From positions 1,058-65,057 of the forward strand of contig CANPZY010000003.1 of the NCBI GenBank assembly GCA_947588945.1: a stretch of DNA of 64,000 nucleotides, given 5' to 3'. The position numbers and the translations under genes are program-made. Each line of letters begins with the position of its first letter. Position 1 is the first letter of the stretch. Shown here one piece after another: positions 3,471 through 50,848 of this stretch. The stretch comes from an uncultured Clostridia bacterium (GTDB taxonomy: Bacteria > Bacillota > Clostridia > TANB77 > CAG-508). The notes beneath the pieces were generated by a model. That model was not told the origin of the DNA and did no database searches. It saw only the letters and a program-made list of their open reading frames with translations.

Positions 3471-4403
3471 CTATATTTTCATATAACATTTCTCTTTTAT
3501 AAATTTCTTTATTTGTTTTTCATCTTTTCCTTCATAATATGGAATAAGTAAATCTTTAAATTCTTCTGTAAGTTCCGCTGGAATTGCTATAATTCCTTTT
3601 CCTTTTGAAATTATATAATGATTACTATATATTACTGATGTTCTTTTATTTCCATCTATAAATATTTGCTTTTTCATTGTGTATAATAAAAGTTCTATAG
3701 CCCTGTCAACATCATCTAATTTTTTATTAAAAATTTGGTTCAATTCTTCTTTTATAATGCTTTCAATTGGTAAATCTGGTTTCCATGTTGTTCCACCTAT
3801 TGTTACTGGGACATTTCTAACCTTTCCTGCTGAATAGTAAAATCCTTCTTCCACCATTTTGTTAATTTCACATAATAATGCAAAATTAGTATCACTTAGA
3901 ATAACATTTTTATTTAATATAAATTCCCAAGCATGTTTTAAATTTACTATTTTCATTATATCTTCAGATGTCATATTATTTACTTTTCCACCTTCAATAA
4001 TGCTTTCTGTATCTGCAAATGTTGTTGCAACTCCCTCTAATATTGCTTGTTTATAAATTGTATCTACTAAATGTCTTTTGGCAAAATCTATATTTTGCTC
4101 TACTTTTTCAGAAAGTTCTTCTTCTACATAATTTAATTGTTTTAATTTCTTGTTTATTTCTCTTATTTGCTTTTTTAACTCTTTTGCCTTAATGCTATTG
4201 TTTAATATTAAATTATATAATTCTTCTGAGTATTCCCCAACATATTTTGTTAAAGCTACTCCATCTTCTCTATAATGTACATATATATATTTGTTTGAAT
4301 CTTTTTCTCTTATTTCAACTGAACCATAAGCAAGCGATTGTAATTCATGTTCAAGTAATTGTTTATTTTGAAGAAGACTCATAATTTCTAGCTTTTCTTC
4401 CAT
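3471..4403 (-). CDS. Fic/Doc-family protein with non-canonical core motif (Q-I-F-I-D-G-N-K-R)
   Basis: Track ORF is 3471..4433. I prefer ATG 4403 (MEEKLEIMSL...) because AAAGGAGAG lies 7 nt upstream and the 4433 ATG sits inside an operator repeat. The core KKQIFIDGNKRTSVIYSNHYI matches HxFx[DE]GN[GK]R except that H is replaced by Q. Confidence 0.7.
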   Translation of the reverse strand: MEEKLEIMSLLQNKQLLEHELQSLAYGSVEIREKDSNKYIYVHYREDGVALTKYVGEYSEELYNLILNNSIKAKELKKQIREINKKLKQLNYVEEELSEKVEQNIDFAKRHLVDTIYKQAILEGVATTFADTESIIEGGKVNNMTSEDIMKIVNLKHAWEFILNKNVILSDTNFALLCEINKMVEEGFYYSAGKVRNVPVTIGGTTWKPDLPIESIIKEELNQIFNKKLDDVDRAIELLLYTMKKQIFIDGNKRTSVIYSNHYIISKGKGIIAIPAELTEEFKDLLIPYYEGKDEKQIKKFIKEKCYMKI

Positions 4404-12370: not shown

Positions 12371-15300
12371 TTAATTTTTATTTTTTAGTACTTTATTTTT
12401 AATGAAGATTACACCTGTTATTATTATTCCTAATACACATATTATTATTATTGCAGTTCTTTGATAATCTTTGTTTTCTCCAGTTGGTGCTAGAATTTGT
12501 ACTTTTTGACCACTATCTGAATCTGGTCCTTTTGGTTTTACCCATACAGTTGATTCATCTATCGATTTATCTTCTGCAGATTGATATGGTGCTTGCTCAT
12601 CTCCAACTTTGCTTAATTCCATTCTTCTTCCCCATGTATTGCTTGTTTCTATTATCTCAGCTAAGTTTGTATATATTATGTTTTTATCTGCTAATGTATT
12701 TGATAATAATGTTGATAAAGTTAAACCTACTTCTCTTCTTGAATTTGATAAGTATTCTAAATCAGTTTCTAATGCTCTTGGAATTAAGTCTCCTGATAAC
12801 CTTCCTGTTCTTATTAATATATTATATGTGTCTAAATTTTCTTTAAAATAGCTATTAACATAGTCATTATCTTCTTTTATTCTATTTAGCGTTTCTGCAT
12901 CATAACTTCCTGACATTTCTGCTGTTTCGTCTTGACTTGTTCCTAATAATGTATCAGTTGTTATCAGTTTCCAATCATTTATATCATTTTGATAGTTTAC
13001 TTCAAAATTCATTTCATTTGATACATAATCAAGTACATTTAATGCATTTGTCTTTGATACGTTACCCCAGTTTGTGTTATTAGTCTTTCCTTTAAAGTAG
13101 AAATCTGTATCTAAATAGTCTACTTCTCCTATGTTATCTACACTTAGCTTATATGTTAATCTTATTCTTGCTCCACTCATGATTTCTTCATCCATTGTTG
13201 CTAAAACTAATTCTTCTTGTCTATCTTTTATTGCACGTTGTATATCATGTCTTAATCTATATCCTGGATTACTATCTGTTCCTACATTATGGTAGTATTC
13301 ATCTTTTCCGTATACTTTATGTTTTCCATAAACTAAGTTTCGTACTGATTGGTTTGCATCAAATAATATGCTTCCATTTGCTAATTTTACTTGTACATTA
13401 GTTAATTCTTTCGATAATAGTAATTGCGCTTCTGGTCTTTCAGTTAATCCTAAATCTAAATCTTCTAATTTATAAATCAAATTTTGTACATACTGTTTTG
13501 ATTGAGCATTAAATACGTCTGTTTGTTGTCTGTTGTATTCTACTTCCATATTTATTATTCCTGATTGTGAAACCATTGTCGTATTTTCTATTAATTCTTT
13601 TATTGCATCTCTCTGAATTCGTACTGCATCTTCTAACATAGTACCTTTATCGATTTCTTCCGCTTTTGTTACTAATTTTGTTCCAGATGCTAATACTTCT
13701 GCTCTATGATTCTTTAATGTTTGCATATCTCCTTCTAGATTTGATGTACTTCCTAATGAATAGTTTCTTTCGTCCATTCTATATGAATATACGTCTTTTG
13801 CATCTGATATTCCATCTAAATTTATGGTATTTTTATCACTTTGATAAATATTATAAAAATACATTGAATCCTTATCATTTACATTGCTTCTATTATAATT
13901 TTGCAATTCTGTATTAGTATAACCAACTATTCCATTATAATTATTTACTTCAGAGTTTTGATTTACTCCTAATTGATATATTGTTGACTTGTAATCTTGT
14001 CCGGTATATGATCTACTATTTAGTCCACTTGTTCCTAATATTCTCTGGTATTCTGGTATATTAGTTCCATTAGTTTCACTTGCTCCATTTATCTTTATCT
14101 TTTCATTAGCACCCTGTACAAAGGCATTTTTTTGTTCATCTGTTAATTTATTAAATAATTCTTGCACTTCGTCCTTTGTTCCATATTTATCTGTATATCC
14201 TTCTCCTGTATCTGTTATATTAGTCAATACAGTTTGTGTTGTATCTCCATATATAAATCTTACAAAGAAGTCTCCTGGTGGTACTGAATCAAATTTATAT
14301 TCTCCTGCATCTTTACTTAGTGTACTTGGAGTTACTGCAAATACTCCTTGTCCAGATAATATTACCTGACCTCCTTCTGTTCCACTATAATATCTTGTAT
14401 CATCTATATGTTGGTCCCACGTACTTCCATTTTTTGTATATGTTACTCTTGACCAAATATATTCTTTTTCATAATTTCCGGTTACAAATCCTTGTTCATC
14501 TACTTCTTTAACTAATTCTACTAATTGAACAGTTATTCCATTTATTTTCTTATCTGCATTTTCTTCAAAATCTTTGTCATTTTCATCATATTTTCCATTT
14601 CCTATTACTGCTCCGTTCGAAATCTCTGTTCTTGCATCTTCAAATGTATATCCTGCAATACTTCGCTCTTCTTCTTCATCTGTGTTTATTTTTAATTTTA
14701 TATTATTTGCTTTATCTTCATCATCTTCTAGTCTATTTTCAGTTGGATCTTGTGATGAAATTATATCTCCATCTGCGTTTAAATCTCTAGGCTTTAAGCT
14801 ACCTGCATTTGAGTCTAAGTCTATTACTCCTGCTTTTCTAGATCCTGATGAACCAAAATATGTAGAATATCCATTTATTTCTGCTATATTTCTTTTTCCT
14901 ACTAAGTCTGTATTATCATTTATATTGTCATTTAGTAAATCTTCCATTTTTTGATCTAATTTTACTTTTCCTGTATCTGGATCATTTTGAACTTTAAATG
15001 TTATATATAAATAAGTTATTTCTCCAGGCATTAATCTGCTTCCACCCATATTGCCACTTTCTACTGATCTTATTCCCGTTAAATATACTGAGTTATAATC
15101 ATGGCTTCCATTTATGTTGTTACTTTCACTATAATATCCACTCATGCCACCATATTTTGAAGAATATATAGATTCACTACTTACATGTAAATCATATATT
15201 TTGTTTCCTTTTGAATCGCCTATATATGTATTTTCTTTTATTATTGTACTATTTGGTAAATCTACAATACTATAATATTGACTTGAATCATAATAGTCTA

Positions 15301-23592: not shown

Positions 23593-24198
23593 ATGAATGA
23601 TAATGATATGAATGAAATGATAAAAAAGGCTCAGTCTATGATTCAAAATAATCAAATTCCTGATGATATAAAAAAACTAATTAATAATTTTCAAAATTCT
23701 AACTCTAATAATTTTAATTCCCAAACAAATACAAATAATGTAAAAAATAATTATAACTATAATAAAAACAATAATAATTCTAACTATAATAAATCAATTA
23801 ATAAAAGCAATTATAACTCTAATTTTGACAAATCAATTAATTCAAGTAATTCTAATTTTAATAAATCAATTAATTCAAATAATTCTAACACTTCAAATAA
23901 TTCTAATAATTCCAATAATTCTAATACTTCAAATAACTTCCATGATTCTATTAATTCTAACTCAACTAATCAAAATAATAGTATGCCTGATATAGATATA
24001 GAAACTATGATGAAGATTCAAAAAATAATGTCTCAAATGAAAAATAGTAATGATGATGATATGAGTAAATTACTTATATCTTTAAAGCCTTATCTTAGGG
24101 ACACAAAAAAAGATAAACTTGATGAATATATAAAATTAATAAAAATGGGAAAAATGACTCAATTATTTAATTCATTTGGTGGTGATCAAAAATATTAG
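23593..24198 (+). CDS. Asn/Ser-rich low-complexity protein, possibly continuing to 24344 after a -1 shift
   Basis: 201-aa ORF with a central tract of about 110 aa made almost only of N/S/K/T. RBS AAAGGAA lies upstream. See the finding on the A5 run at 24188-24192. Confidence 0.6.
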   Translation: MNDNDMNEMIKKAQSMIQNNQIPDDIKKLINNFQNSNSNNFNSQTNTNNVKNNYNYNKNNNNSNYNKSINKSNYNSNFDKSINSSNSNFNKSINSNNSNTSNNSNNSNNSNTSNNFHDSINSNSTNQNNSMPDIDIETMMKIQKIMSQMKNSNDDDMSKLLISLKPYLRDTKKDKLDEYIKLIKMGKMTQLFNSFGGDQKY

Positions 24199-24342
24199 AT
24201 AATGATGGAAAAATAGATATTTTTGGATTTAAATTATACTCTGATGACTTACTTATTATTGCATTACTTTTCTTTTTATATATAGAAAATGTCCACGAAA
24301 AATTTTTATATATTATTCTATTTTTACTTTTAATAAATAACT

Positions 24343-24459
24343 AAAAAAAATATTATAATTCTGCAGTGGCGCGTAGCGACCAAGCGAAGCGCGAATGGAG
24401 CGAAAATGTCTTGACATTTTCAGCGACAACAAGCCACAAAGAAATATAATATTTTTTTT
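24343..24459 (+). repeat. palindromic structured element, copy A (AT outer stem + conserved GC-rich core)
   Basis: Outer stem 24343-24361 / 24441-24459 (18 of 19 bp). Closing stem GTGGC/GCCAC (24366-70 / 24433-37). Hairpin GAAAATGTC..GACATTTTC (24402-24421). The core is near-identical to the reverse complement of 48556-48628. Confidence 0.7.
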
Positions 24460-24491
24460 ATTATTAGTAACAATAATTTATTATTTATATT

Positions 24492-26549
24492 TTATCTTAT
24501 ACTTTGCATATAAGACGAAACTGATGTGTCCTCAGTTATTTGAAATGCATTCATTCCTAAATATTGTGCAAATATTGATCTTGCTACAGGTGCAGTAGAA
24601 CCTCCATGTGCACCATCTTTTACATATACCGCAACTGCTATCTCTGGATCATCAAATGGTGCAAATCCTACGAACCATGCATTTGTTCCATTATTTGTAG
24701 ATGCAGAACCCGTTTTACCACCAACTTGAATATTAAAGTCTCTAAAATATGAATATGCAGTTCCCGCATCGTCGCTTGTAACCCCTTTCATTCCTTCTCT
24801 AATTGCTGCTATAATCTCTGGACTTAATTCTAAGTCACTTCCACTATTTTCATTCTTCTGAAGCAATTCACATACATAAGTATCTATTTCGTTTCTTGAA
24901 ACTTGCGTACCATCATTTTTATTAATGGATTTTATTATTGTTACATCTATATTTTTTCCGCCATTTGCAAGCATTGCTGTATATTTTGCCATTTGTAGAG
25001 GAGTAAAATCATTATATAATTGTCCAATAGCTGTTTGTATGGTCTTTCCTCCAGTCCATTCATTATCTACTTCTGGAGATGAAAGAGTTCCTGCTATTTC
25101 ATCTGGCAACTCAACTCCTGTTTTTTGTCCTAATCCAAAAGCCTTTGCAACTTCAGATAACTTTTCAATTCCTGCTCTTCTTCCTGTTTCATAAAAGAAA
25201 TAGTTGCAAGAATGTTCTATAGCCTGCACAACATTTTGCCATCCATGTCCACCTCTTTGCCAACATGTAGGTTGATAATCTTTAAAATAAGTATATCTAT
25301 AAGTGTCATTTATTTTTGTATTTAAGTCAATCGCTCCACTTTCCAAACCTGCTATTGCTGTTACTAATTTAAATGTTGAACCTGGTGCAGATTTATCAGA
25401 AATCGCTTTATTAACTAGAGGGTGCCTTCCATCATTTAAATAATTATCCCAATTTGCTTGACTTATTCCATCTGTAAATAGTGAAGGGTCATAATTTGGA
25501 TAACTTGCCATTGCTAAAATCTCTCCTGTTTTTACATTTACTACTACGGCTGCACCTTCATTTGCATTTCTTGCATCACTTAGTACCCCATTTTGCATAT
25601 CTTGTATATCTTTTGCTAAAGCTTCTTCTGTTACTCTTTGTAAATCTGCTTGTATTGTTAAAACTACATCACTTCCTGTTACTGCTTCTTTTGAAATATA
25701 TTCATCTGTAACTAAACCCTCAACAGACATATCTATCTGTTTTATTCCATCTTGTCCTTTTAGATATTTTTCAAAAACTTTTTCGATTCCAGTTTTTCCA
25801 ATAATATCGTTTTGATCATAACCTGGATTTGCTTCTAATTCAGGTTGCGAAATTGGACCTACATAACCTAATATATGTGATGCAAGTTCCCCTAATGGAT
25901 ATAGAACTGTTGGCTCTGTATAAGTACTAATTCCAGGAAATTCAGAACTCATCTCATTAAATTTAGCATAGCTTGTATTACTAATATTTTTTGCTAATAT
26001 TACTGACTTTGTATTACTATATCCATCTCTTTCTATTAAATATCTCAATGTAATTATCTTTCTAGCATCTTCATCATTTTCTGCTTTTACTTTATATCTT
26101 TCTTTAAAAAAATTAAACGAAGCTTCTGCATCAGCATTACTATCTATTTTATTTGCACTTTTCCAAGCTTCAGCATTTATATTTTTAAATTCAAATGGAT
26201 TTATATTTATTGGAAAATCATCAATATAACTATCACCATTTTCTTCAAGAGTTTTTGCTAATAATAAAAGTGTATTATTTAATGTGTCATTATCAATTTT
26301 TGTCTTATAGATTTCCACATTATATAACATACTTGTGGATACTAATTTGTTTCCTGTCGAATCTAAAATATTCCCTCTAGTTGCTGTAATCGTTTTTTCT
26401 CTAGTTAGCCTTGTATTTGATGTTTCCCTATATTCTTCTCCATGAACAATTTGCAAATTGAACAATGTTACAAGCAAAATAATACCAATAATGTAGACTA
26501 TCGCAATAAGAATATTAAATCTTAATTTAGTATCTTTCTTTTCTTTCAT
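24492..26549 (-). CDS. mrdA: penicillin-binding protein 2 (elongation transpeptidase)
   Basis: N-terminal TM helix plus SxxK (STFK), SxN (SCN) and KTG (KTGSA) motifs. Located directly downstream of mreBCD. Confidence 0.9.
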   Translation of the reverse strand: MKEKKDTKLRFNILIAIVYIIGIILLVTLFNLQIVHGEEYRETSNTRLTREKTITATRGNILDSTGNKLVSTSMLYNVEIYKTKIDNDTLNNTLLLLAKTLEENGDSYIDDFPININPFEFKNINAEAWKSANKIDSNADAEASFNFFKERYKVKAENDEDARKIITLRYLIERDGYSNTKSVILAKNISNTSYAKFNEMSSEFPGISTYTEPTVLYPLGELASHILGYVGPISQPELEANPGYDQNDIIGKTGIEKVFEKYLKGQDGIKQIDMSVEGLVTDEYISKEAVTGSDVVLTIQADLQRVTEEALAKDIQDMQNGVLSDARNANEGAAVVVNVKTGEILAMASYPNYDPSLFTDGISQANWDNYLNDGRHPLVNKAISDKSAPGSTFKLVTAIAGLESGAIDLNTKINDTYRYTYFKDYQPTCWQRGGHGWQNVVQAIEHSCNYFFYETGRRAGIEKLSEVAKAFGLGQKTGVELPDEIAGTLSSPEVDNEWTGGKTIQTAIGQLYNDFTPLQMAKYTAMLANGGKNIDVTIIKSINKNDGTQVSRNEIDTYVCELLQKNENSGSDLELSPEIIAAIREGMKGVTSDDAGTAYSYFRDFNIQVGGKTGSASTNNGTNAWFVGFAPFDDPEIAVAVYVKDGAHGGSTAPVARSIFAQYLGMNAFQITEDTSVSSYMQSIR

Positions 26550-37045: not shown

Positions 37046-38854
37046 TCAAGTTATATCAATATAATTAAAGTCAACATTTAATTTTTCTAATATCTTTTTT
37101 TCTCTATCTGTGCAAGTAAATATTACAATTTGATTTTCAATCTGAGCTAAGAATTTCAGAGTTTCTTCTAATCTTTCATCATCATAAAAAGCAAAAGTTT
37201 CATCTAATAATATAGGTAATCTTTCTGTAGAAATCCCATCAATTACAGAAAGTCTTAGTGCTAAGTATATTTGTTCAATTGTTCCTGTGCTTAATCTATC
37301 AATTGATACATATTTGCCATTCTCTAATTCAACTGATATATCATCATTTATAATAATATTTTTATACTTTCCTTTTGAAATTTTTTCAATATTTTTAGAT
37401 AAATTTATATTAAATTTTGGTGTTATATTATTTTTCATTTCAATATAAGATTCTTCAATTAGATTTTTAGTTATATTAATTACTCTGGCTCTATCTTCTA
37501 ATTTTTTCAAATTTGATTTTTCTAAATCAAGTTTTTCTTCTAAATCTGCCAAATGTTCAAGTTTTGGTTCTATGTTATCCATGTCCAATTCTAATTTATG
37601 TAATTCTAAAGTTAAATTTTCAATTTCTTTATTACTATCATAAAGCTTTTTCTCAATATTCTCATCTTCTAGTAAATTAATAATTTCTTTTCCATATATA
37701 TCAATTAAACTTTCTTTTTTCTCAAAATACTCATTATTTAATTCCTCTTTTAATTTTTCTATTTCCATTTTTAATTCATTATTATTAGTTTCTAATGTTT
37801 TTACAGGTAAATCAATATTTTTTAAATAATATTTTTTATTATTAACCATTTTAATAAATACTATTAAAATAAAAATTGGAATTAATAAAAAAATCATTAA
37901 TCTAATTATTTTATTTTTTATAAAAATAAAATTAAAAATATTTATAATTATTAAAAAAAATAAAATAATTAAAAATTTTTTATTATTATTTTTTTTATTT
38001 TTATTATTTTTAATATTTTTTATTTTTTCAATTTTATTTTTATTTTCTTTATAAATATTTTCTTTTATTTTTATTTTTTCGTTTTTTATTTTTTTATCAT
38101 TAAAAATATCAAATATTTTTTCTAAAATTTTTTTATTATTTTTTAAATAAATTAATTTTTTATTTATTTTTTTATTTTTTTCTTCTATTTCATATTTAAT
38201 ATTTTTAATATTTTTTATATTTTCTAATTCATTTTCATAATTAATAATATTTTCTTTAGAAATATTAATTGGTCTATCTTGACTTTTGTTAGTACCAACT
38301 TCAGTAAGTAATGTTTTTTCTAAAATATTAATTGCTTTTTTATATGAAATTTCTTCATCACCACTCTCAACTAAATTAGCTACTTTTTGAATTAAAATAT
38401 TTTGCATATTAGTATTAATTCTTGTTTCATTCTGTGAAGCAATTACTGTTGATAATAATGTATCTTTATCAACTTTAACTTGATCATAAAAAAATAAATT
38501 TCCCATTTTTTTATCTATATTATATTTGTTAGAAATATCTCTCCCCATTTCATCATATATTTCTGCACTTTTTTTATTAAAATTTCTAAAAACCTCGTAT
38601 TGCTTATTATTATCTAATTTATAAATAATTTTTCCCGAAAATTCATTTTCGTTCCAAGGTAAATACTTGTCATAATCAGATAAATTTTTTCCATTTTTAT
38701 TTTTAGAAATATTATATAAAATATTTATAATAAAATTTAAAATTGTAGATTTTCCTGATTCATTTTTTCCATATATAATATTTATTTTTTCTAAATTAAA
38801 ATTTTTATTTTTTAATTTACCATAAGAATTAATTTTTAATTTTTTTATTTTCAA
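37046..38854 (-). CDS. YhaN/SbcC-like AAA ATPase with a central K/N-rich and hydrophobic segment (TTG start)
   Basis: Walker A GKNESGKST, signature-like LSTGTIEQ, Walker B LPILLDETFAFYDD. Central FLIILFFLIIINIFNFIFI and LMIFLLIPIFILIVFI helices. GGAG precedes the TTG start. Confidence 0.7.
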   Translation of the reverse strand: MKIKKLKINSYGKLKNKNFNLEKINIIYGKNESGKSTILNFIINILYNISKNKNGKNLSDYDKYLPWNENEFSGKIIYKLDNNKQYEVFRNFNKKSAEIYDEMGRDISNKYNIDKKMGNLFFYDQVKVDKDTLLSTVIASQNETRINTNMQNILIQKVANLVESGDEEISYKKAINILEKTLLTEVGTNKSQDRPINISKENIINYENELENIKNIKNIKYEIEEKNKKINKKLIYLKNNKKILEKIFDIFNDKKIKNEKIKIKENIYKENKNKIEKIKNIKNNKNKKNNNKKFLIILFFLIIINIFNFIFIKNKIIRLMIFLLIPIFILIVFIKMVNNKKYYLKNIDLPVKTLETNNNELKMEIEKLKEELNNEYFEKKESLIDIYGKEIINLLEDENIEKKLYDSNKEIENLTLELHKLELDMDNIEPKLEHLADLEEKLDLEKSNLKKLEDRARVINITKNLIEESYIEMKNNITPKFNINLSKNIEKISKGKYKNIIINDDISVELENGKYVSIDRLSTGTIEQIYLALRLSVIDGISTERLPILLDETFAFYDDERLEETLKFLAQIENQIVIFTCTDREKKILEKLNVDFNYIDIT

Positions 38855-39452
38855 TTTTTTTCTCCTATCTTTATAAAAATTATTAAATATATTTTTATTT
38901 TTTGTTTTATTTTATCTTTTTAATTAATTAATCTTTTTATTTTTTGTTTTATTTTACCTTTTTAATTTATTTATTTTTTTATTTATAAAATAAAAGATTA
39001 GTATTCCATTTTTTTACATATTACATTGTAATTTTTTCTCACAATTTTAAATTTTGATGTTGATGTTTTTTCGTCTCTCTATTTGTTTTTTTGACAATTT
39101 ACAATTTTGTCGCACTTTTTTTAACTATTTTTTGTCTTTCAGGGTGTGTTTTTTTGATTTTTTTACTTTTAAATTTTACTCTAAAAATTTCAAAAATGTA
39201 ATCATTTTTATTCAATTTCCCATAGTTTTCTTTAAATTTTTCTTTTTTTAATTTTTTTAATTTCTTAACTTGTCTTTTTGGATTTACGTTTTTTTACTTA
39301 ATCTTTATCTCTTTATTAACCTTTATCTTATATGGTTTTTTATCTCGTTTTATGTATACCTTTTTATCTTTTTTATTTCATAAAAAAGGTAAAAATTAAG
39401 ACATTATCTTATAGAATTCTTTTTAATATTTTAAAAATCATATTATAATTTT

Positions 39453-39838
39453 GTATTTTATTTTTATAATTTATTTGTATTTATTTTTTATTTTATTTTT
39501 ATTTTTTTCTATTTTTTTTATATTTTATTTTTACAATTTATCTATATCTATTTTTTATTGTTTTTTATTTTTGTTTAATCTTTATGTTTTATTTTTATAA
39601 TTTATTTATATTTATTTTTAATTTTATTTTTATTTTTTTTCTATTATTTTTTATATTTTATTTTTACAATTTATATATATCTATTTTTTATTGTTTTTTA
39701 TTTTTTGTTTAATCTTTATGTTTTATTTTTATAATTATTTATTTTTAATTTTATTTTTATTTTTCTATTTTTTTATTTTTTTTATAATTTATTTATATTT
39801 ATTTTTTTATTTTATTTAATATTTTTTTAATTTATTTT
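39453..39838. repeat. AT-only tandem repeat, about 133-bp unit x 2.9
   Basis: Units at 39453-39585, 39586-39719 and 39720-~39838 (third copy diverged and partial). A second short repeat with a period of about 45 bp lies at 38892-38975. Confidence 0.8.
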
Positions 39839-40876
39839 TTAATTATTAAATATTTTTATAATTAATTCTAAAATTTCATCATATTCTTTTTTATTAATTT
39901 CATTATTTTTTAATTTTTCATTTAACTTTTTTATACTTATTCCTTTTAATGTATTATTATTTTCTTTTATTTCTATTTTTAATTCTGTATAATCTTTTAT
40001 TTTTATTATATTTTTTTGTATTAATTTTAAATCAATATTAATAATAAAATTTCTATATCCAATTAAATTTATTTCATATAAATTATTACCTGTATCAATT
40101 AAATTTAATTTTTCAATTAAATCCTCTTCTGAATATATATCTGAAACATCTACATCAATTTCTATAAATTCTCTTTCATCTGCTTTTATAAATTCTGTCT
40201 TCACTTTATTTTTTGTTATTTCTCCATAAATAAAACCATGCTCTCCTATCTCATCAAACCCCATCGAAATTAAAGAACCTGGATAAAAATTATCTCTCTT
40301 ATGTATATGACCTAATGCTACATAGTCAAATCCATTTTCTTCTAACTTATTTTTACTAATTGGATTATATATACCACTTATTTCATTTCCTGATATAACT
40401 GTTCCATGTGTAATTAATATATTTATTTTATTTTTATCATCAATTTTTATATCCTCTAATTGATTATCATTCATTTCATAATTATTAAATCCATAACCAT
40501 AGATATTTACTTCCGGGTTTTCCACTTTTTCTGCTTTTTCTGTGAATATCTTTACATTTTCAGCCCAATCAAAAGTCTTATAATATGAATTTGACATATA
40601 TGGATCATGATTTCCTGGTGCAATATATATTTTAGTATTATTTATTTCCTTAAATAAATTATTTACATATATAATTGTAGATTTTCTAACATAATCTTGC
40701 TCGAAAAAATCCCCACTAATAAATAAATATTCTATATCATTTTCTTTAATAAATTCTATTACTTTTTTAAAAGCAGATCTTTGCTCTAATCTTCTTATCT
40801 TTCCTAAATCTGCTCTATCTGATATTGTTTTAAATGGAGTGTCAAAATGTATATCTGCTAAATGTACAAATTTCAT
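39839..40876 (-). CDS. YhaO/SbcD-like metallophosphoesterase (nuclease subunit)
   Basis: HLADIHFD, GDFF, GNHD and GHIH motifs. Confidence 0.85.
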   Translation of the reverse strand: MKFVHLADIHFDTPFKTISDRADLGKIRRLEQRSAFKKVIEFIKENDIEYLFISGDFFEQDYVRKSTIIYVNNLFKEINNTKIYIAPGNHDPYMSNSYYKTFDWAENVKIFTEKAEKVENPEVNIYGYGFNNYEMNDNQLEDIKIDDKNKINILITHGTVISGNEISGIYNPISKNKLEENGFDYVALGHIHKRDNFYPGSLISMGFDEIGEHGFIYGEITKNKVKTEFIKADEREFIEIDVDVSDIYSEEDLIEKLNLIDTGNNLYEINLIGYRNFIINIDLKLIQKNIIKIKDYTELKIEIKENNNTLKGISIKKLNEKLKNNEINKKEYDEILELIIKIFNN

Positions 40877-41047: not shown

Positions 41048-41077
41048 TTGAAAAAATACCCCTTTTTGTGGTAAAAT
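41048..41077 (+). promoter_or_regulatory. candidate sigma-A promoter of the plus-strand block
   Basis: TTGAAA (41048-53), 18-nt spacer ending TGG, TAAAAT (41072-77). Lies 37 nt upstream of ATG 41114. Confidence 0.35.
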
Positions 41078-41113
41078 AAGAGTATAAGAGTTTTTGAAAG
41101 GAACCATATAAAT

Positions 41114-42919
41114 ATGAATAATATATTTCTACTTTTATCTATAATTATATTAATACTTACAGTTATAAAAGCAAAAAAAAATATAAATGATACAAAAAAA
41201 TGGATACCTATATCAATACTTGGAATGACAGCTTCACTTGCTATATTAATTTTTCCGCTAAGTACACAGCCAGATTTTATAGGAAAACTAGTAAATTCAA
41301 TTTTATATTCTGCACAAACCATTATTTTAAATGAAAATTTAGGAATACTTGATAATTTTCAGATAATAAATATATTTGATACAATTTATATTGGCGTAAT
41401 TTATTTATTAACATTATTAATGCCTTTACTTACAGTATCTTTTTTATTAACTCTTATAGGTGATTTTACAACCAAATTTAAACTATATTTTACTAGAAAA
41501 AAAGATATATTAATTTTTTCAGAATTAAATGAAAAATCTGTAACTATAGCTAAACGCTTATATGATAAAGGAAAAATTATTATTTTTGCAAATTGTGATA
41601 AAGAAAATTTAAAAAATTATGACTTGAAAGGGCTTAATATTACTAAATTTTATTCATTAATAGAAAATATAAATTTAAAAAGGATAAAAAGCAATACAAT
41701 TACTATTTATTTAGTAAACGAAATAGAAAATGAAAATTTAACTTTAACTTTAAGATTGATTGAAAAAAATAAATCATTAAATAAAAAAATTAAAATTTAT
41801 ACTATATTAAATGATGAAGTTTCTAGAATTATTTTAGATTCAACTGACAAAGGCAATATCCAACTAGAAATTGTAAATGAAGTTGAAAGAACTATTATAC
41901 AATTATTGCAAGATAAACCTATTTATCTAAATGCTATAAACAATGAGATTTCTGTTTTAATAGTAGGTTGTGGCAAAGTTGGAAGAGAATTTTTAAAAAT
42001 AATTACATGGTGTGGTCAGATTATAGGATATAAACTAAAAATAAATATTATTGATATTCGAGCAAATAGCATAAAAGAATCACTTACTAAAGAGTGTCCT
42101 GAATTAATTTCAAATTATAACTACAACTTTATTGAAGCAGACATTAACTCTCAAAAGGCATTAGATGAGCTAAACAAATTAAAAAATATTAATTATATAG
42201 TTGTAACCCTTCAAAATGATGAAATGAACATAAAAGAAGCTATTTATTTAAGAAAATATTTTTTGTTACAAGATAAAGAAAATTACAACAATAAGCCACT
42301 TATAAATATTTGGATAAAAGATGTAGAAAAAAGTATGCAAATAAATTACTTGAAAGCTGATGAAAAAACACAATATAATTTAAATGCTTTTGGAAGCATT
42401 AATGATATTTACTACAAATATCCAATTATTGATTCTAAAATAGAGCATATGTCTCAAAGAGTACATTTAATATATAATGCGGATGATACTAATTTAGAAA
42501 AATATTATGAAACAGAATATAATGTAAAATCTTCGAGAGCAACTGCAACTCATATAAAATACAAAATTTATTCAGTATTAAAAGATGAATATACTGGTGA
42601 TATTGGAACTGATTTAAATAACTTTGAGAAAAAACTTCAAGATGAAAAAATTTTTAATGAATTAGTAAAAAATGAACACAATAGATGGATAGCATATATG
42701 AGAAGCGATGGATATCAAAGTGCTTCAGTTGCTGATGTTGAGAAATATCGTGAAAAAATAAATGACACAAAACATATTTTAGCAAAATTACATCCTGCTA
42801 TAGCAGAATTTGAAAAACTAGATGAAATTGAACATAAGCTTAATAAAAACTTTAAAGAGTCAGACATAAAAATTATTAAAAATATACCATATATTTATAA
42901 GGAAGATAACAATATATAA
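41114..42919 (+). CDS. membrane protein with Rossmann (GxGxxG) domain and C-terminal RyR-like domain
   Basis: Three N-terminal TM helices. VLIVGCGKVGREF is a dinucleotide-binding motif. C-terminal ELVKNEHNRWIAYMRSDGYQ...KLHPAIAEFEKLDEIE resembles the bacterial RyR domain (PF02026). Confidence 0.6.
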   Translation: MNNIFLLLSIIILILTVIKAKKNINDTKKWIPISILGMTASLAILIFPLSTQPDFIGKLVNSILYSAQTIILNENLGILDNFQIINIFDTIYIGVIYLLTLLMPLLTVSFLLTLIGDFTTKFKLYFTRKKDILIFSELNEKSVTIAKRLYDKGKIIIFANCDKENLKNYDLKGLNITKFYSLIENINLKRIKSNTITIYLVNEIENENLTLTLRLIEKNKSLNKKIKIYTILNDEVSRIILDSTDKGNIQLEIVNEVERTIIQLLQDKPIYLNAINNEISVLIVGCGKVGREFLKIITWCGQIIGYKLKINIIDIRANSIKESLTKECPELISNYNYNFIEADINSQKALDELNKLKNINYIVVTLQNDEMNIKEAIYLRKYFLLQDKENYNNKPLINIWIKDVEKSMQINYLKADEKTQYNLNAFGSINDIYYKYPIIDSKIEHMSQRVHLIYNADDTNLEKYYETEYNVKSSRATATHIKYKIYSVLKDEYTGDIGTDLNNFEKKLQDEKIFNELVKNEHNRWIAYMRSDGYQSASVADVEKYREKINDTKHILAKLHPAIAEFEKLDEIEHKLNKNFKESDIKIIKNIPYIYKEDNNI

Positions 42920-43015
42920 GCCCATACTAATATAGAAATACTTTATAAGAATCTTTAAATTACTTATAAAGCTAAGATACAACACAGAAAAATAAAGAAT
43001 AATGCTTTTATAATT

Positions 43016-43975
43016 ATGTATAAAAAAGGAATGAAATTTTATATGAATTTAGAATATAAAGATATAAATGAACAAATAGAAATCATAAAGTCTAGTAATA
43101 TTATAATAAAAAATGAAAAAGAAGCTAAAGAAATTCTTTTAAGAGAAAATTATTATAACCTAATTACTGGTTACAGAAATATATTCATTGATATAAAAAA
43201 TTCTAAAAAAGATGGAATTGAAACATGCACAACTGACACTTATTTTGAAGAAATTTATGCCGTTTACAAATTTGACAGAGAACTTAGAAATATAATGCTT
43301 AATTATATTTCTATTATTGAAATTAATATAAAGTCATACATAGCTAATACTTTTTCTAAGAAATATGGTGTTTACAATTATCTAAATGAAGAAAATTTTA
43401 ATATTAATGATAAAACTAGACCAATTTATAGAGATTTAATGCAAAAATTAGATGATAATTTAAATAGAAATATTGATAATTACAAAGATATAAAGGAATG
43501 TAAAGAACTATATAATACCATTCCTCTATGGATGTTTACTACTTTAATTACTTTTGGAAATATTATAAAATTCTATAGTTTAATGAAAATTGAAGACAAA
43601 AAAGAAGTATCTAATCTTTGCCAAATTAATTATAAAGATTTACTTACTTTTTTGAAAATGTTAAACACTGTTAGAAACATTGCTGCACATAGCAATATGC
43701 TATTTAATTTGAATTTAAGCATTTCTTATCCAATTCATAAAAAGTCTTTTTACCATGATGATTTAGGAATTGCTAAAAATGGAGAGCACTACGAATCAGG
43801 TGAAAACGACATTTTATCTATTATAATTATTTTAAAAAGACTTTTGAAAAAAAGTGATTATAATAATTTTTTAAATAAATTTAACTTAGCAGTTCATAAT
43901 GTAAAAGAAGAATTAGATGAGGAAAGTTTTAATAATTTTATGCATATAATGGGAGTTCCAGAACACTTAAAATAA
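43016..43975 (+). CDS. Abi_2 (AbiD/AbiF-like) abortive-infection protein, HEPN-type
   Basis: YYNLITGYRNIF, FDRELRN and VRNIAAHSNMLFN (Rx4H HEPN motif). The real start may be ATG 43043 (MNLEYKD). Confidence 0.8.
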   Translation: MYKKGMKFYMNLEYKDINEQIEIIKSSNIIIKNEKEAKEILLRENYYNLITGYRNIFIDIKNSKKDGIETCTTDTYFEEIYAVYKFDRELRNIMLNYISIIEINIKSYIANTFSKKYGVYNYLNEENFNINDKTRPIYRDLMQKLDDNLNRNIDNYKDIKECKELYNTIPLWMFTTLITFGNIIKFYSLMKIEDKKEVSNLCQINYKDLLTFLKMLNTVRNIAAHSNMLFNLNLSISYPIHKKSFYHDDLGIAKNGEHYESGENDILSIIIILKRLLKKSDYNNFLNKFNLAVHNVKEELDEESFNNFMHIMGVPEHLK

Positions 43976-44068
43976 GTTAATTATAAGGTTTATAGGTAGC
44001 CTAAAAACCTAAATATAAAAAAAAGGATATGTTTATTAAAATTAACATATTATATGAGGATATGAGTT

Positions 44069-47000
44069 ATGAAAAAAATTAATATTTTCTTAGCAGTTGA
44101 TGAAAAAGAACTACAAAACGAAAAAGATGAAATTGGAAATTTTATACGTGATTTAAATGACAAATATGAGAATTATGATATTTATTTTAGACTAATTACA
44201 GATGATGATTCTGAGGTTTTAACTGATGATATAAAGAAAAGTGAATTGTTTTTTATACTATTTTCACATACTGCAGATGAAAAAATAGTTCAAGAATTTA
44301 ATACTGCTTATGAGTTTTTCAAGAATAATCATAATCCTAAAATTACAACATATATCAAGAAAAGCAAAAATCCAGATGAGTCAGTTGTTAATTTTATGAA
44401 GCATTTAGATGAAGAACTAGGTCATTATTATAATCAGTATGAAAATATTGATACAATCAAGTTAAATATAATTTTGCAATTAAAATCTTTAGGCTTAGAA
44501 GCTGGCAAAATTGAGGTTATAGATAATAAATTATGTATTAATAAAGACGAAATAATGACTTTAGATAATATTCCATTTATATTTAACAATAAAGACTTAA
44601 ATAACTTAAAGGAACAGTATAATAAACTAGACCAAGAATATTGGGAATATAAAGATATTATTAGAAAAAATCCTGATGATGAAAAAGCTTTTGAAAAATT
44701 CTCTGATATAAATGATAAGAGATCAAAAATAAAAGATAATATATACCAAATTGAAAATAATATTATTGAATTAGAAAGTAGTTTTATTTCTTCATCAATG
44801 GATGGCAAGCTTTCTAAAAGACAAATATATGCAAAAAAATGCTTAGATGATGGTGATTTAGAAGAAGCCAAAAATGCTTTATCTTTTGAAGATTTAAAAT
44901 CAGATGGTGATAAATTATTGAAAATTCAAGAGAAGCAAAAAGAAGAAATGCAAACCATTGTAAATGAGCTTATGCAAAGAGTTGATATACTAAAATTAGA
45001 TATAAATAATAACAACAGATATAAAGAAATTGAAGAAGCTTTTGAGGAAGCTGTAAAGCTTGATGAACAAGGAAATTTAAATAGACGCAGTTTATATAAA
45101 TATAGTTTATATTTGAATAACCAGACTCAATACGATAAAGCAATAAAATTTGCTAACAAATATAAAGAATATTTGAATTTAAGCTCAACTAAAGAGTATT
45201 ATGAAAAAGAATTTGACGAAGGAACATATTATAATACTTTATCAAGTATTTATAACCACTTAGGAATCATTTATTATAATATTGGTAAATATGAAGAAGC
45301 TGAAAAAATATATCTAGAATTAATTGAAATAGACAAAAAATTAGTTGAAATTAATCCGAAATTGTATCAAAATAATCTTTCTATTGCTTATAATAATCTA
45401 GGACTAGCTTATTTATACTTTGAAGATGTGAAATTTGAACTAGCTAAAGACTGTTTCTTGAAAGCAATAGAAATAGATGAAAAAATATTAACTGAAGGCC
45501 ATAACGATTATTATAGAGTTGTATTATCTAATTCATATAATAACTATGCACTTTTACTTGAAAAATATAGTGACTTTCATAATGCATTAAAATATTATAG
45601 AAAATCAACAGATATAAGAATTGACTTAGTAAAAAAATATCCCCAAGATGAATATAAAAAAGAACTTTTATCTGCTTCTTATCATCAGCTTGGAAAATAT
45701 GCCCTTAGAATATCAAAATATGATATAGCTGAAGATTATCTTTTAAAAGATATGAAACTAATGGAAGAATTATATGAAAGTAATTCTAAAGCTTATATGA
45801 GTCGGATTAGCAGGTTCTTATCGAACCATTGGCCGTTTTTATTTAACAATATATAAATATGACAAAGCTCAATTTTATTATAACAAGGCATTAAAATTAT
45901 ATGAAAAACTTGCTAATAATAAAACAGAGAGCACTCAAATAGACCTTATACAAATTTACCAAAGTTTTGGAGAATTTTATATAAAATTAAAAGATTATGA
46001 GACTTCAGAAAAATATTTAAAAAAGGCTCAAGAACAACTTGATTACTATGTGAAAGAATTTGATAATAAAAATATTGAAGCTTACTTTTCAGATTTATAT
46101 GCCAGCTTTTTTAACCTATACAATACAATGAATAATTTTGAAAAAGCAAAAGAATATTGCTTAATGGAAATTGAAGTTGACAAAAAATTAGCAGAAAAAA
46201 ATGCAAGAAAATATAATTCTTTTCTTGCAAGTGATTATGAATCATATGGTAATTTGTTAGGAAATGACCAAGAATATTATAAAAAAGCCATTGATATATT
46301 AAAAAATACTTTATATTTACAAAAATCAGACTCTGAATATTCTTTAGCTAATTTAAATGATAAAATCAGTAATTTATATAAGAAAATTAAAAATTATGAT
46401 GAGGCAGAAAAATATTTAGTAAATAATATAAGTATTTACAAGAATTTAATTCCTAATATGAAAGGTTTATATGAACCTGATTTAGCAAGGAATTATCAAT
46501 CATTAGGAGATATTTATATATTTTTAAAAAAATATGATGAAGCAGAAAAAAGCTATTTAGATGGAATTGACTTAATAGAAAAAATTCATCTTAGAGATGA
46601 AAAATATTTTAATCCAACTCTTGCTTCATGTTACTATGATTTAGGCATTCTATATTTGAATAATATGAAAAAATATGAAGATGCTGAAAAATATCTTTCA
46701 AAAAGTATGCAAATTAGAGAAAAATATTCTGATGAAAATAATTCTAGCTCAATCTTTGACTTAAGTTTTTCTTACTGTACTTTAGGTGAACTTTATAAAG
46801 TAACTGGAAAAAATAAAGAAGCTGAAAATTATTATTTAAAATCATTAAAAATAAGACAAGATTTAGATAAAAAGGCAAAAAATAATGATTATACTGATAA
46901 TATTGCGTTTGTTTTTAATAGACTAGGTTCACTTTATTTATATAATATGAATCAAATTGATAAAGCTGAAGAATATTATTTAAAAGCATTTGAATTATAT

Positions 47001-48008
47001 AAACAATTATCAGAATATAATTTTAATCAAAATGGACTAAATCTTGCTAAAACATATAATGACCTTATAAATTTGTACAACAAAAAGCAAGACTATGAAA
47101 AGGTTGAAGCATATTATAAAGATAGAATAGCTGTTTTAGAAAAACTTTTAGATAATGATTTTTCTGAATATGCTTCCTATTTATATAATACTTATAAACA
47201 ATTAGCCAACACATATTTTCAAAGAAAACAATATCAAGATGCAGAAAAATATTATTTAAGTGCTTTTGAATTATGCTCTAAATTATACAATGATGATAAA
47301 GAATTATATGAATCAGATTATGCTGATATATGTGATTGCTTAGTTAGTGTTTATATTAATACTAATAAAATTGAAAAAACAATAGATTACTATAAAATAT
47401 CACTTGAAATTCGTGAAAAACCATCAATGCAGAAAACAATAGTAAACAAACATAATCTAGCTAATTTATATTATAATATTGCTTTAATATTTTCTAAATT
47501 AAAGGATAAAAAATATACAGAATATTTTTATCTAAAATCTATGAATACAGAGCGAGAACTATTTAAGGAAACTGATAAGTATACTGCTTCACTTGCTAAC
47601 GCTTATCATAAGGTTGCTGAATTTTACTATGATAATAAAAAATATGAAGATTCAGAAACATATTACTTTATGGCTATAGAACTTGAAGAAAATTTAATAA
47701 AAGATAATTATGAAAAATATGAAACTACTTTAATTTATGACTATATGGAAATGGCAGAATCATGTAGACACAATAAAAAATATGATGATGCTTCATCTTA
47801 TTATTTAAAAGCTATTGAAATGTTAGAAAAAGCTTATGAAAATAATCATGAATATGCCCAAGATTTAGCCTTTACTTATTATAATTTAGCTAGAGTATGC
47901 CTAAAATTAGATTTAATTGATGATGCTACTAAATATACAAAAATGGCTAAAAACTTTAAAGCAGAATTTAAAGCTCAGCAAAAAAATAAAAAGAAAGGAA
48001 AAGAATAA
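44069..48008 (+). pseudogene. DUF4062-like N-terminal module + coiled coil + very long TPR array, split by a +1 frameshift near 45800 (about 1,310 aa if repaired)
   Basis: ORF 44069..45856 and the frame open from 45801 to 48008 both read as TPR repeats across the junction (...ELYESNSKAYM / VGLAGSYRTIGRFYLTIYKYDKAQFYYNKALKLYEKL). N-terminus KINIFLAVDEKELQNEKDEIGNFIRDL...SELFFILFS. GAGGA RBS upstream. Confidence 0.75.
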
Positions 48009-48530: not shown

Positions 48531-48654
48531 AAAATAAAAAATATAAATAATTCTCGTATCTTGTTGTCGCAGAAAAGTGTTTCACACTTTTCGCTCCATT
48601 CGCGCTTCGCTTGAGCGCTACGCGATACTTCGAATTATTTATATTTTTTATTTT
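48531..48654 (-). repeat. palindromic structured element, copy B (inverted relative to copy A)
   Basis: Outer stem 48536-48553 / 48632-48649 (18 of 18 bp, extendable). Closing stem GTATC/GATAC (48556-60 / 48624-28). Hairpin GAAAAGTGT-TTC-ACACTTTTC (48572-92). Core shared with copy A. Confidence 0.7.
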
Positions 48655-48805: not shown

Positions 48806-50848
48806 TTATTCCATTGGACCAAACAATTCATCAAATTTAGCTTCTAATTCCTTTTGAATATCTAGTTCATCTTCTTGTGTTGGTTGTTCACTTACTGAGC
48901 TTTGAAAAATATTACTATTTTCCATTTCACTTTTTATTTGATTTGTTAATTCTTCGCTATTATTTTTTATTTCTGGAACTGTTTGTTCTATTGGTTGAGC
49001 TTCATTTGAATTCTTTTCTTCTTTTTTATTTTCATCATTCCATAAGTCATCTAGCGATTCAACTTTAAATGATTGCTCTTTTTCATCATCTACTGCTTTT
49101 CCTGTAAATGGGTTATATGGATCAAATTTTCTCCATTCTCCTCTTTCCCCTGCATCAAAGTCATTATGATCTATTCTTATTGAATTTAAGTCCTTTGTAA
49201 TTCTAGGCTTTTTAAACCAATAATACTTTTTTGCCATAATTGGCTTTAAACCTTTTTCAAAAATTATGCAATTATTATTATCTAATCTTCTTAATTCATC
49301 TGGTGTCATAAGTGCTCTTGCCATTATTTGATCAGATTCACTATATCCTTTTCTATCATTATAATTATCTCTATTTATTGATTTACTATAATGTGAAATT
49401 GTTTTTTCACCTAATTCTTTCGAAAAATACTCTACTGTTGCATAAGAGTTGCTTCCTAAGAATACATGTGTGTCACAGTTACCTATTATTGTTTCATAAG
49501 ATTTTTCATATAAAGCTTTAAGCTGATCTAAGTTTTGTAATATAACACTAAATGAAATTCCTCTACTTCTACTTGTTGATATTTTTTTATCAAAGTCCGG
49601 AATCTGACCTATATTTGAAAACTCATCTAGTATAAAAAATGTTTTTTGTGGCAATTTTCCACCATTTTTATCTGCAAAATCATATAATTGTTGTATCATC
49701 TGTGAGAAAAATATTGTTAGTAAAAAGTCATAAGCTGTATGCGTATCTGATGATACTACATATAGAGCTGTTTTCTTCGTAGCAATATCTTCAAAACTTA
49801 TTGTATTAGTTGATGTTACATTTGCAATTTCCTTTGAATCAAATTTTCCTAATTTTGACTGTAAAGAACTTAATATAGAACTGTATGTCTTGTCTGAAGA
49901 TATTTCAACTGATTTATAATTCATTCTAGCAGGATGGTCATAAGGCAATTTATTAAATAATTCTGATAAAAGATTTGTATTTCCTTTTGTATTTGCAGCT
50001 CTAACAAGTTCTGCGCAACTTGCTAAATTTTGTTCCTCTGGAGGTACTGCTGCTATTAAATAATATATTAAAGCTTTTAATAATAGCTCTGACATATTGT
50101 CCCAGAATGGATCTTGTGCTCCTGCTGCTTCTGATTTTTGTCCTTTTACTATGGTATTTGCTATAACATCTACATCTAATTCTGATTTAACATGTTGTAT
50201 TGGATTATAACTATCACTACTATTTGGGTTTACTAAATTTAATAATTTTATTTCATAACCTTGAGATTTCAAGTATCCAGCTGTTGCATCATATATTTCA
50301 CCTTTTGGATCTGTAAATATATAAGATCCAAGGCATTGATGAGCATTTGGAATAGTATATGCAGATGATTTACCAGAACCTGAACCACCGACTATTAATA
50401 CATTAGTATTACCTAGCTTATCTAAAGGTAAATAATTCTCTTCTGCAAGTATTATTCCGGCATTTCTGCTAAGTACTCTATATTGTTCTCCACCAGAACT
50501 CCAATCACTTGAGCCATGTTCTATTTTGTCATATTTTCCTTTTTTTCTACTTTTAAATAGGCCTATTCCTACACATATAGCAAAAAATACTGTAAAAATT
50601 GCTGTCCATAACATAAAGGTTCCAAAATAACCTTCTTTAAATATCTTTCCAACACCAGCAACTTTTACAATATTTAATGTAAAATTTTCAAAAAAGTAGC
50701 TTAAATCAAAAACACCGGTAGCACTACTATCAACTATTGTTGTAGATAATGGAGCTACCACAAATATCTCTGCAAATAGCCAAAATACAATAGTTAATAT
50801 TATTGCTACCATATGTTTTTTTATCATTACCATAAAACTATCTTTCAT
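48806..50848 (-). CDS. VirD4/TraG-type type IV secretion coupling protein
   Basis: Two N-terminal TM helices, Walker A VLIVGGSGSGKSSAYTIPN, DPKGE, Walker B FFILDEFSNIG, RSRGISFSVILQNLDQL, and an acidic C-terminal tail. Confidence 0.85.
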   Translation of the reverse strand: MKDSFMVMIKKHMVAIILTIVFWLFAEIFVVAPLSTTIVDSSATGVFDLSYFFENFTLNIVKVAGVGKIFKEGYFGTFMLWTAIFTVFFAICVGIGLFKSRKKGKYDKIEHGSSDWSSGGEQYRVLSRNAGIILAEENYLPLDKLGNTNVLIVGGSGSGKSSAYTIPNAHQCLGSYIFTDPKGEIYDATAGYLKSQGYEIKLLNLVNPNSSDSYNPIQHVKSELDVDVIANTIVKGQKSEAAGAQDPFWDNMSELLLKALIYYLIAAVPPEEQNLASCAELVRAANTKGNTNLLSELFNKLPYDHPARMNYKSVEISSDKTYSSILSSLQSKLGKFDSKEIANVTSTNTISFEDIATKKTALYVVSSDTHTAYDFLLTIFFSQMIQQLYDFADKNGGKLPQKTFFILDEFSNIGQIPDFDKKISTSRSRGISFSVILQNLDQLKALYEKSYETIIGNCDTHVFLGSNSYATVEYFSKELGEKTISHYSKSINRDNYNDRKGYSESDQIMARALMTPDELRRLDNNNCIIFEKGLKPIMAKKYYWFKKPRITKDLNSIRIDHNDFDAGERGEWRKFDPYNPFTGKAVDDEKEQSFKVESLDDLWNDENKKEEKNSNEAQPIEQTVPEIKNNSEELTNQIKSEMENSNIFQSSVSEQPTQEDELDIQKELEAKFDELFGPME

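Follow-up and report, generated by a model that had tools for sequence, protein, structure and literature searches.

A palindromic repeat of ~115 nt, present as two copies (A and B) in a 64,000-nt stretch of DNA from an uncultured Clostridia bacterium (GenBank assembly GCA_947588945.1, contig CANPZY010000003.1, forward-strand positions 1,058 to 65,057; hereafter the window), is compared here with the described systems that it most resembles. The closest in kind are the repetitive extragenic palindromic (REP) sequences with their bacterial interspersed mosaic element (BIME) and REPIN arrangements, and the miniature inverted-repeat transposable element (MITE)-type repeats, although the defining features of both are lacking; for its flipping, the nearest parallel is found in the loop inversions of chloroplast DNA. 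Small, non-coding, intergenic and foldable repeats such as Correia/NEMIS, ERIC/IRU, RUP, BOX and Bacillus bcr1 vary between relatives in their presence or absence at a given site. MITE-type repeats are often co-transcribed, as terminators or processing sites, and carry conserved terminal inverted repeats that match an insertion sequence (IS), together with target-site duplications (TA for Correia). In the repeat described here, by contrast, the termini vary by site, and no duplication was seen and no IS found in the comparisons given below. Kelchner and Wendel in 1996 and Kim and Lee in 2005 reportedly described small inversions of hairpin loops located 3′ of genes in the non-coding DNA of chloroplasts. 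Such inversions are exact, recur between close relatives and take place between short inverted repeats with no recombinase. The exact flipping of stem-loop content just past a gene is common to both cases, but the chloroplast inversions involve single-copy loops, whereas here a dispersed family carries a conserved structured cargo and the flipping of its 70-nt three-way junction is nested.

With the REP, BIME and REPIN systems the repeat shares its extragenic, hairpin-forming, multi-copy nature (tens to hundreds of repeats of ~100 nt) and a mostly vertical inheritance in which the same sites are kept. REP and REPIN sequences are flanked by A- and T-runs and are thought to have been co-opted as terminators, and deletions of their centre leave a shorter palindrome (PMC3337134). 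A REPIN, however, has conserved ends (the REPs) and a variable centre, whereas the present repeat has a conserved, asymmetric centre and variable arms (PMC3337134). The RAYT gene typical of REPIN systems is absent from the two genomes richest in the repeat and shows no correlation with copy number. The hosts of REP, BIME and REPIN sequences are Proteobacteria, whereas here the host lineage is low-GC Clostridia, and frequent in-place inversion of the whole element is not among the REPIN features described in the literature compared. Intrinsic terminators are similar in standing shortly past stop codons, in their enrichment between convergent genes and in the A-run and T-run around a strong hairpin, and the repeat replaces terminators found in relatives. 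Here, however, the stem beside the T-run is pure A+T and 18–26 bp long, and the 70-nt conserved junction at its tip is something that no terminator requires. Lastly, the sequences GCGNAGC and GCGNNAGC form extraordinarily stable DNA mini-hairpins at single-strand priming signals (PMC13037366). They are borne by the phage G4 origin, ssiA and the N4 promoters, and one hairpin of the repeat (P4, below) resembles them by sequence motif only.

Copies A and B are members of a genus-restricted, non-coding family of palindromic interspersed repeats. The tip of the element is a conserved, asymmetric, G+C-rich three-way junction mounted on a long A+T stem that varies from site to site, and between orthologous sites the element undergoes nested in-place inversion and exchange of its hairpin modules. 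Taken together, the family is probably a terminator-resident palindromic repeat that changes through replication and repair processes intrinsic to palindromes, with no dedicated recombinase. With it, a very low-GC, uncultured lineage of gut Clostridia gains a repeat family whose architecture is the reverse of that of REPINs and MITEs.

Architecture and distribution of the repeat family

The genome that contains the window (G000; 1.40 Mb in 42 contigs, 26% G+C) holds 41 full-length and about 7 truncated copies distributed over many contigs. Iterated nhmmer searches return 48 matches, so the family extends well beyond the two copies on which a preliminary description of the window was based; a covariance model built from the family's copies returns 43. 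Among the sampled genomes of the genus, 20 of 41 carry 1–53 or more copies of the element, whereas it is missing from all 16 genomes that represent other families of the order. An exact pattern scan over one genome per prokaryote species found the core almost solely in rabbit-gut metagenome-assembled genomes (MAGs) labelled uncultured Clostridia; pattern matches in a Paenibacillus and a Roseiarcus record are unsupported by the covariance model at E = 1e-6. Rfam gives no match to the window at the gathering threshold, and only chance-level matches (≤17 bits) to copy A at E up to 10.

The structure was drawn by hand and combined with a covariance-model alignment, which replaced RNAalifold on a MAFFT alignment because misalignment there had lost the variable hairpin. 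P1 is an A+T stem whose inner ~13 bp are semi-conserved (AAATATAATAATT). Its outer part varies from copy to copy, yet complementarity within each copy is perfect over 18–26 bp, and the stem ends in an A-run and a T-run. Inside P1, a purine-rich internal loop is followed by the 5-bp P2, which occurs with 16 different arm pairs among 41 copies, and by a second loop in which GC faces AA. P3 has 2 bp, the second pair being T-A in 27, C-G in 12 and T-G in 1 of the 41 own-genome copies. The junction segment reads AGCGAYCAA and the linker between P4 and P5 reads GCGAA. P5 consists of TGGAGC opposite GCGACA, is invariant and contains two tandem G-A pairs; such a pairing is proposed for copy A, where GCGACA lies at 24423-24428.

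Two hairpins project from this framework, and both are variable. P6, of 8–9 bp, has 29 forms among the 41 copies. P4 has 13 forms, of which GCGAAGC accounts for 21 copies; the others include GCGCAAGC, GCGTAAGC, GCACGAAGTGC, GGGCGAAGCCC, ACGAAGT and a C-GNA-G loop on a longer stem. The mini-hairpin motif introduced above is matched exactly by P4 in 25 of the 41 copies, and most of the remainder keep the C-GNA-G loop on another or longer stem. A second GCG[T/C]AGC is found at the left side of the core, and the element also contains a GTAG-bearing motif, GCGTAGCG. Single-sequence folding suggested an additional pairing of CGCG on the left with CGCG after P4; it was rejected, as column 63 covaries with 43 (in P4) and column 29 with 111 (in P2).

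The covariation of stems and the conserved core that the preliminary description had read from two copies are borne out across many copies and species. The 41 copies of G000 have 91.5% of their pair cells paired, compared with 75.8% in shuffles, and 32 of 39 pairs change on both sides. An alignment of 77 distinct sequences, drawn from seven or more genomes, is model-guided and thus fitted to the covariance model; in it, 96.8% of cells are paired, 36 of 39 pairs vary on both sides and none of 500 shuffles matches these values; slid controls of the same alignment come nowhere near the real pairing. The pair cells comprise 2768 Watson-Crick, 39 G-T, 21 A-C and 71 other combinations. Both strands of both copies in the window also fold far better than shuffled sequences, with z from -5.9 to -9.8 as RNA and from -5.9 to -8.3 as DNA.

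Several smaller features of the family were observed elsewhere in the genome. Three truncated copies (C7 8922-8979, C18 8837-8891 and C20 18518-18569) have the same end base after GCGAATGGAGC; they lie 0–9 nt from the stop codon of a minus-strand gene, each with a full copy adjoining. C7 also contains tandem arrays of the repeat with a period of ~126 nt. On C8 (13041-14658) two full copies bracket a gene resembling, by eye, the replicative helicase DnaB (13172-14497, minus strand); in the sister genome the same pair (L028) has one copy flipped and the other without the P6 hairpin. A Logan contig (L160, run ERR10663693) terminates within the conserved core of copy B, as the repeat itself explains: a 31-nt stretch common to many copies would break de Bruijn assemblies, and the family probably fragments MAGs of this genus.

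Nested inversion and module exchange at orthologous sites

The sister genome (G053; MAG Lapin-028 bin79) is 97% identical to G000 in the amino-acid sequence of the penicillin-binding protein (PBP) gene and about 93% identical in the nucleotides flanking the copies, and 21 of 24 G053 copies are at orthologous sites in G000. Nine of the 21 orthologous copies, copy B included, are exactly inverted between the two genomes within collinear flanks. At the flipped sites the flanks, the outer stem and the copy-specific hairpin are all unchanged. An assembly artefact is an unlikely source of these inversions, because the perfect arms reach at most ~26 bp, less than the length of assembler k-mers or reads. 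In two other assemblies of the same strain as G000, copy B has the orientation seen in the window.

The modules within the element change on their own as well. The P6 loop flips independently of the rest (GTCTTGAC to GTCAAGAC and GCTTGC to GCAAGC, in either direction), and whole P6 alleles are replaced at the same site by alleles known from other copies; one copy has lost P6 by a precise deletion. P4 likewise switches among GCGAAGC, GCACGAAGTGC and GGGCGAAGCCC when orthologous sites are compared. A second, related family of G+C-rich palindromes is also exactly inverted between the close genomes G014 and G046. This second family is found 3′ of the PBP gene (L098 592-697, plus strand, in G014; L102 591-696, minus strand, in G046) and has GAGCGAATGGCGCAGC in common with the family described here. 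Such frequent nested and exact inversions, combined with module exchange, offer a natural system for studying the upkeep, flipping and spread of bacterial palindromes without an obvious transposase.

Copies that are retained in place are under constraint. After re-orientation, orthologous copies in G000 and G053 are 91.7% identical in P1, 96.9% in P2 and 94–98% in the core and junction, compared with 85.1% in other intergenic DNA and 84.3% at third codon positions. The tips of the hairpins are the least conserved parts, at 72% for P4 and 83% for P6. One copy (C25 2436) is also present in G024, a genome at ~70% protein identity. With more distant species only one of seven collinear sites is held in common, which indicates that sites turn over.

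The preliminary description had raised the possibility of a MITE, and the idea comes close; no target-site duplication is recognisable, however, in five comparisons of filled with empty sites, all of which are diverged or represent replacements or deletions. The site of copy A in G053 is a replacement by a terminator and a small open reading frame (ORF) cassette, the G053-only site L010 corresponds to a deletion remnant in G000, and a tandem pair in L005 reflects duplication or deletion. More distant filled and empty sites are too diverged, with the exception of one case at a hairpin tip. Here a plain A+T hairpin in the window (57562-57600; Table 1) is the empty counterpart of a site in Lapin-033 bin63 (L018 3096-3202), in which a family member sits inside the same outer stem. 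That the stem of the hairpin is the outer stem of the filled site accounts for the differences in outer arms between sites.

Terminator position and competing explanations

Positional statistics, which rest on a crude ORF call, place 46 of 48 copies in tandem or convergent, that is non-divergent, intergenic regions. Regions between convergent genes contain more copies than expected (11 of 48, against a background of 9.4%; p = 0.004). A copy typically lies 29 nt past the stop codon upstream and 154 nt short of the next gene (medians). The intergenic regions of copies A and B contain no other terminator-like hairpin. The orthologue of the copy A site is a plain hairpin with a T-run in G007 and, in G053, a plain terminator followed by the cassette, which encodes a hydrophobic product. 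At the site orthologous to copy B, more than 10 relatives have a canonical G+C hairpin with a T-run directly past the virD4 stop codon. The place taken by the element is therefore that of a terminator.

Two side observations concern these replaced sites. The cassette in G053 (L077 ~3560-4140) encodes a hydrophobic peptide of ~37 aa, MVEQAMLLIIYLLFYGLVGMTIIAFALIIAIVVILSK, and has a G+C hairpin terminator of its own. Past the virD4 stop codon, L131, L132 and L140 (from G052, G006 and G004) have plain terminators of the form CAAGCGAAGG-loop-CCTTCGCTTG with CAAGCGAAG in common with the core of the element. These CAAGCGAAG-bearing terminators could be the palindromised remnant of an old copy, or the match could be chance.

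The preliminary description was right to see the position as that of a bidirectional terminator. The features of such a terminator are present in sequence and position, namely a stable hairpin with a T-run on both strands just past a stop codon, and the hairpin is accordingly assigned a putative role in termination or 3′-end formation in both directions. A role in two directions would explain the strict Watson-Crick pairing of the stems on both strands, as well as the slower evolution of retained copies relative to neutral DNA. The family appears to have usurped the terminator position at ~40 genes. Annotations should label its sites as repeats or terminators, and analyses of motifs and synteny should mask them.

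We consider it likely that a repeat resident in terminators changes here by processes inherent in its palindromic form. Inversion of the core and flipping of the loops would arise from template switching, or from breakage at the hairpin tip followed by repair, with the sister chromosome or another copy as repair template. No dedicated recombinase would be needed for either flips or swaps, and the same processes may introduce the core into further terminator hairpins of A+T composition. The window encodes an SbcD/SbcC-like pair (37046-40876), which makes cutting of hairpin tips plausible but proves nothing. It is conceivable, though rather unlikely, that the family is more than this, a transposase-free selfish palindrome living in the tips of terminator hairpins. 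Its G+C-rich mini-hairpin junction would then nucleate a hairpin or cruciform, and the tips would be cut, for example by the encoded SbcCD-like nuclease. With two ends that are reverse complements, repair from the sister chromosome could occur in either orientation and yield in-place flips, while repair from another copy would yield module swaps. If a filled copy served as template for repairing a plain A+T terminator hairpin, that hairpin would gain the core, and the palindrome could spread in this way without target-site duplication.

Several points weigh against a terminator-resident repeat that changes in this manner. The covarying inner stems and the almost invariant junction exceed the needs of a terminator. 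The covariation itself is partly a shuffling of a limited set of modules rather than independent compensatory mutation. A simple terminator scan does not call the element, since the stem beside the T-run is pure A+T with no G-C pairs. Comparison of G000 with its sister G053 revealed no clean new insertion, and insertion at a hairpin tip rests on one clear pair of filled and empty sites, a picture that deletion of the centre could also yield. The MAG is 90.6% complete, and a partner gene could be missing from it. Finally, the core is antisense to the upstream gene in 22 copies against 7 in G000 (p = 0.008) and in 11 against 6 in G053, and G-T mismatches outnumber A-C mismatches (39 against 21) on the strand that is usually not the mRNA. 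The orientation bias and the G-T excess together hint at a strand-specific constraint that the favoured explanation fails to predict. Measured against the GC-skew strand, the bias amounts to 27:14 (p = 0.06), the motif-bearing strand being mostly the C-rich strand; the bias may be linked either to transcription or to replication.

One rival explanation is a structured RNA with an orientation-specific function, for example a small RNA, a protein-binding RNA or an element of the 3′ untranslated region. Its transcription would take place with or beside that of the upstream gene, with the three-way junction as its functional part and the A+T stem as its terminator. The 22:7 bias relative to the upstream gene, the excess of G-T over A-C mismatches, the strong covariation in all helices around a nearly invariant junction, the slow evolution of retained copies and the presence of GNRA-like loops (GCAA, GTAA) among the P4 variants all accord with such an RNA. 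We nevertheless regard it as unlikely, because 9 of 21 orthologous copies are inverted at ~93% identity, some in one direction and some in the other relative to the gene, and each such inversion would replace the RNA by its complement. In addition, it is usually the non-mRNA strand that shows the G-T excess, G-U accounts for only about 1.3% of pair cells, half of the genus is without the element while copy number ranges from 0 to >50, sites turn over between species, and there is no Rfam match even at E = 10. Where the preliminary description proposed a functional RNA or DNA structure, structure and covariation hold up, whereas an RNA of fixed orientation is disfavoured by the inversions, the patchy distribution and the near-absence of G-U pairs. 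For non-coding-RNA searches this is a caution, as strong covariation and a conserved junction can arise in DNA palindromes of unfixed orientation.

The many dispersed extragenic hairpin copies, their patchy distribution and the turnover of sites could also point to a non-autonomous transposable element moved in trans, either a REPIN or REP mobilized by a RAYT enzyme (HUH Y1) acting on folded single-stranded DNA, or a MITE mobilized by an IS transposase. The folded core is rich in G-A pairs and GCGNAGC DNA mini-hairpin motifs and includes the GTAG-containing GCGTAGCG, and the exact end base shared by three truncated copies after GCGAATGGAGC might be the product of a site-specific cut. Yet such an element is distinctly improbable. 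The Y1 family (PF01797, IS200/RAYT) has no match in G000 (42 copies) and G053 (39 copies), the two richest genomes in a survey of MAGs that are 74–91% complete; it is present in several element-free genomes and does not correlate with copy number, and six Y1 genes have no element within 1.5 kb. An all-against-all comparison of the ORFs of the genome revealed none in more than three copies and none that is transposase-like or otherwise a multi-copy IS-like ORF; the duplicated ORFs are pilin-like, serine recombinase and KilA-N-like (by eye, without a Pfam check). Variable outer arms around a conserved centre are moreover the reverse of the REPIN and MITE architecture (PMC3337134), no target-site duplication was found, and 21 of 24 sites are common to the sister genomes with no clean new insertion seen. 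Exact in-place inversion between inverted repeats, together with TATAAT-like hexamers in the A+T arms, recalls the invertons that a site-specific recombinase flips to regulate neighbouring genes, but we judge this very improbable. The sequence of the inverted repeats changes with the site, and flipping extends to the nested 8-bp P6 hairpin, an observation that argues for a property of the palindrome and not for a recombinase site. Copies are 3′ of genes rather than 5′, promoter-like matches are no commoner than in shuffles, and the other assemblies of the same strain have copy B in one orientation only. Scarcely credible is the suggestion of the preliminary description that copies A and B, being opposite in orientation and ~80% identical, serve to invert the 24-kb segment between them. 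They are only 2 of >40 copies, their uninterrupted identity spans only ~30 nt, and a single contig of G053, which has no copy A, carries virD4 (C2:25839-27872) and, ~22 kb away, the PBP gene (C2:49986-52040) in the arrangement of the window.

The two copies in the window and their surroundings

The letters and stems of both copies were re-read directly in the window, and the stems and positions given in the preliminary description were found there (Table 1). The palindrome of copy A extends beyond P1, to about 24336-24466. Its G+C-rich segment is GCGTAGCGACCAAGCGAAGCGCGAATGGAGCGAAAA, and copy B does keep this segment with only two substitutions (AC to CT). The view that a peptide from ATGGAGCG is unlikely stands, as the reading frame is not conserved between copies A and B. 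The ORF calls also confirm that both copies lie between convergent genes, copy A between a 201-aa ORF and the PBP gene, and copy B between a DUF4062 gene and the gene for a VirD4-type coupling protein.

Table 1. Positions of the two copies, their helices and associated features in the window
Feature	Position	Strand	Details
Copy A, full-length element	24343..24459	+	covariance-model match 24345-24457, 122.7 bits; nhmmer 99.6 bits
Copy A P1 left arm, A+T outer stem with A-run	24343..24362	+	pairs with 24440-24459, 19/20 pairs
Copy A P1 right arm, T-run at its end	24440..24459	+	
Copy A P2 left arm GTGGC	24366-24370	+	partner GCCAC 24433-24437; covariation
Copy A P2 GTGGC, then GC (internal loop), then GT (P3 left)	24366..24374	+	AC partner of P3 at 24429-24430
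Copy A P4 mini-hairpin GCGAAGC (GCGNAGC motif)	24384..24390	+	allele table; PMC13037366
Copy A near-invariant GCGAATGGAGC	24391..24401	+	
Copy A P6 variable hairpin GAAAATGTC-TT-GACATTTTC	24402..24421	+	arms 24402-24410, 24413-24421
Penicillin-binding protein gene	24492..26549	-	stop codon 33 nt from copy A
Copy B, full-length element	48531..48654	-	P1 48632-48654 with 48531-48553
Copy B P2 GTATC/GATAC	48624-48628 with 48556-48560	-	
Copy B core	48593-48623	-	
Copy B P6 GAAAAGTGT/ACACTTTTC	48584-48592 with 48572-48580	-	
VirD4-type coupling protein gene, upstream of copy B	48806..50848	-	relatives: plain terminators directly past stop codon
Plain A+T hairpin TTAATATTAAATGAAC-TAAGAAA-GTTCATTTAATATTAA	57562..57600	-	empty counterpart of a filled site

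On the left of copy A, 146 nt (24199-24344) separate the called stop codon of the 201-aa ORF (24196-24198) from the end of a TAA at 24342-24344. This segment is conserved relative to G053 about as well as coding sequence, and a homologous tail is kept in G007. Past a change of frame, the gene of the 201-aa ORF probably extends to the very base at which copy A begins.

The SbcD/SbcC-like pair mentioned above comprises a Metallophos gene (SbcD/Mre11-like) and an AAA_23/AAA_27 gene (SbcC/Rad50-like), ~1 kb apart. The intervening stretch (38855-39838) contains no ORF of at least 100 aa and has about 13% G+C. Either the SbcC-like gene is interrupted, or its extremely A+T-rich middle is read unusually. 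Between the SbcD-like gene and copy B lies a block on the plus strand (41048-48448) that is absent from this location in most relatives, where virD4 is directly followed by the sbcD-like gene; the block looks like an inserted island.

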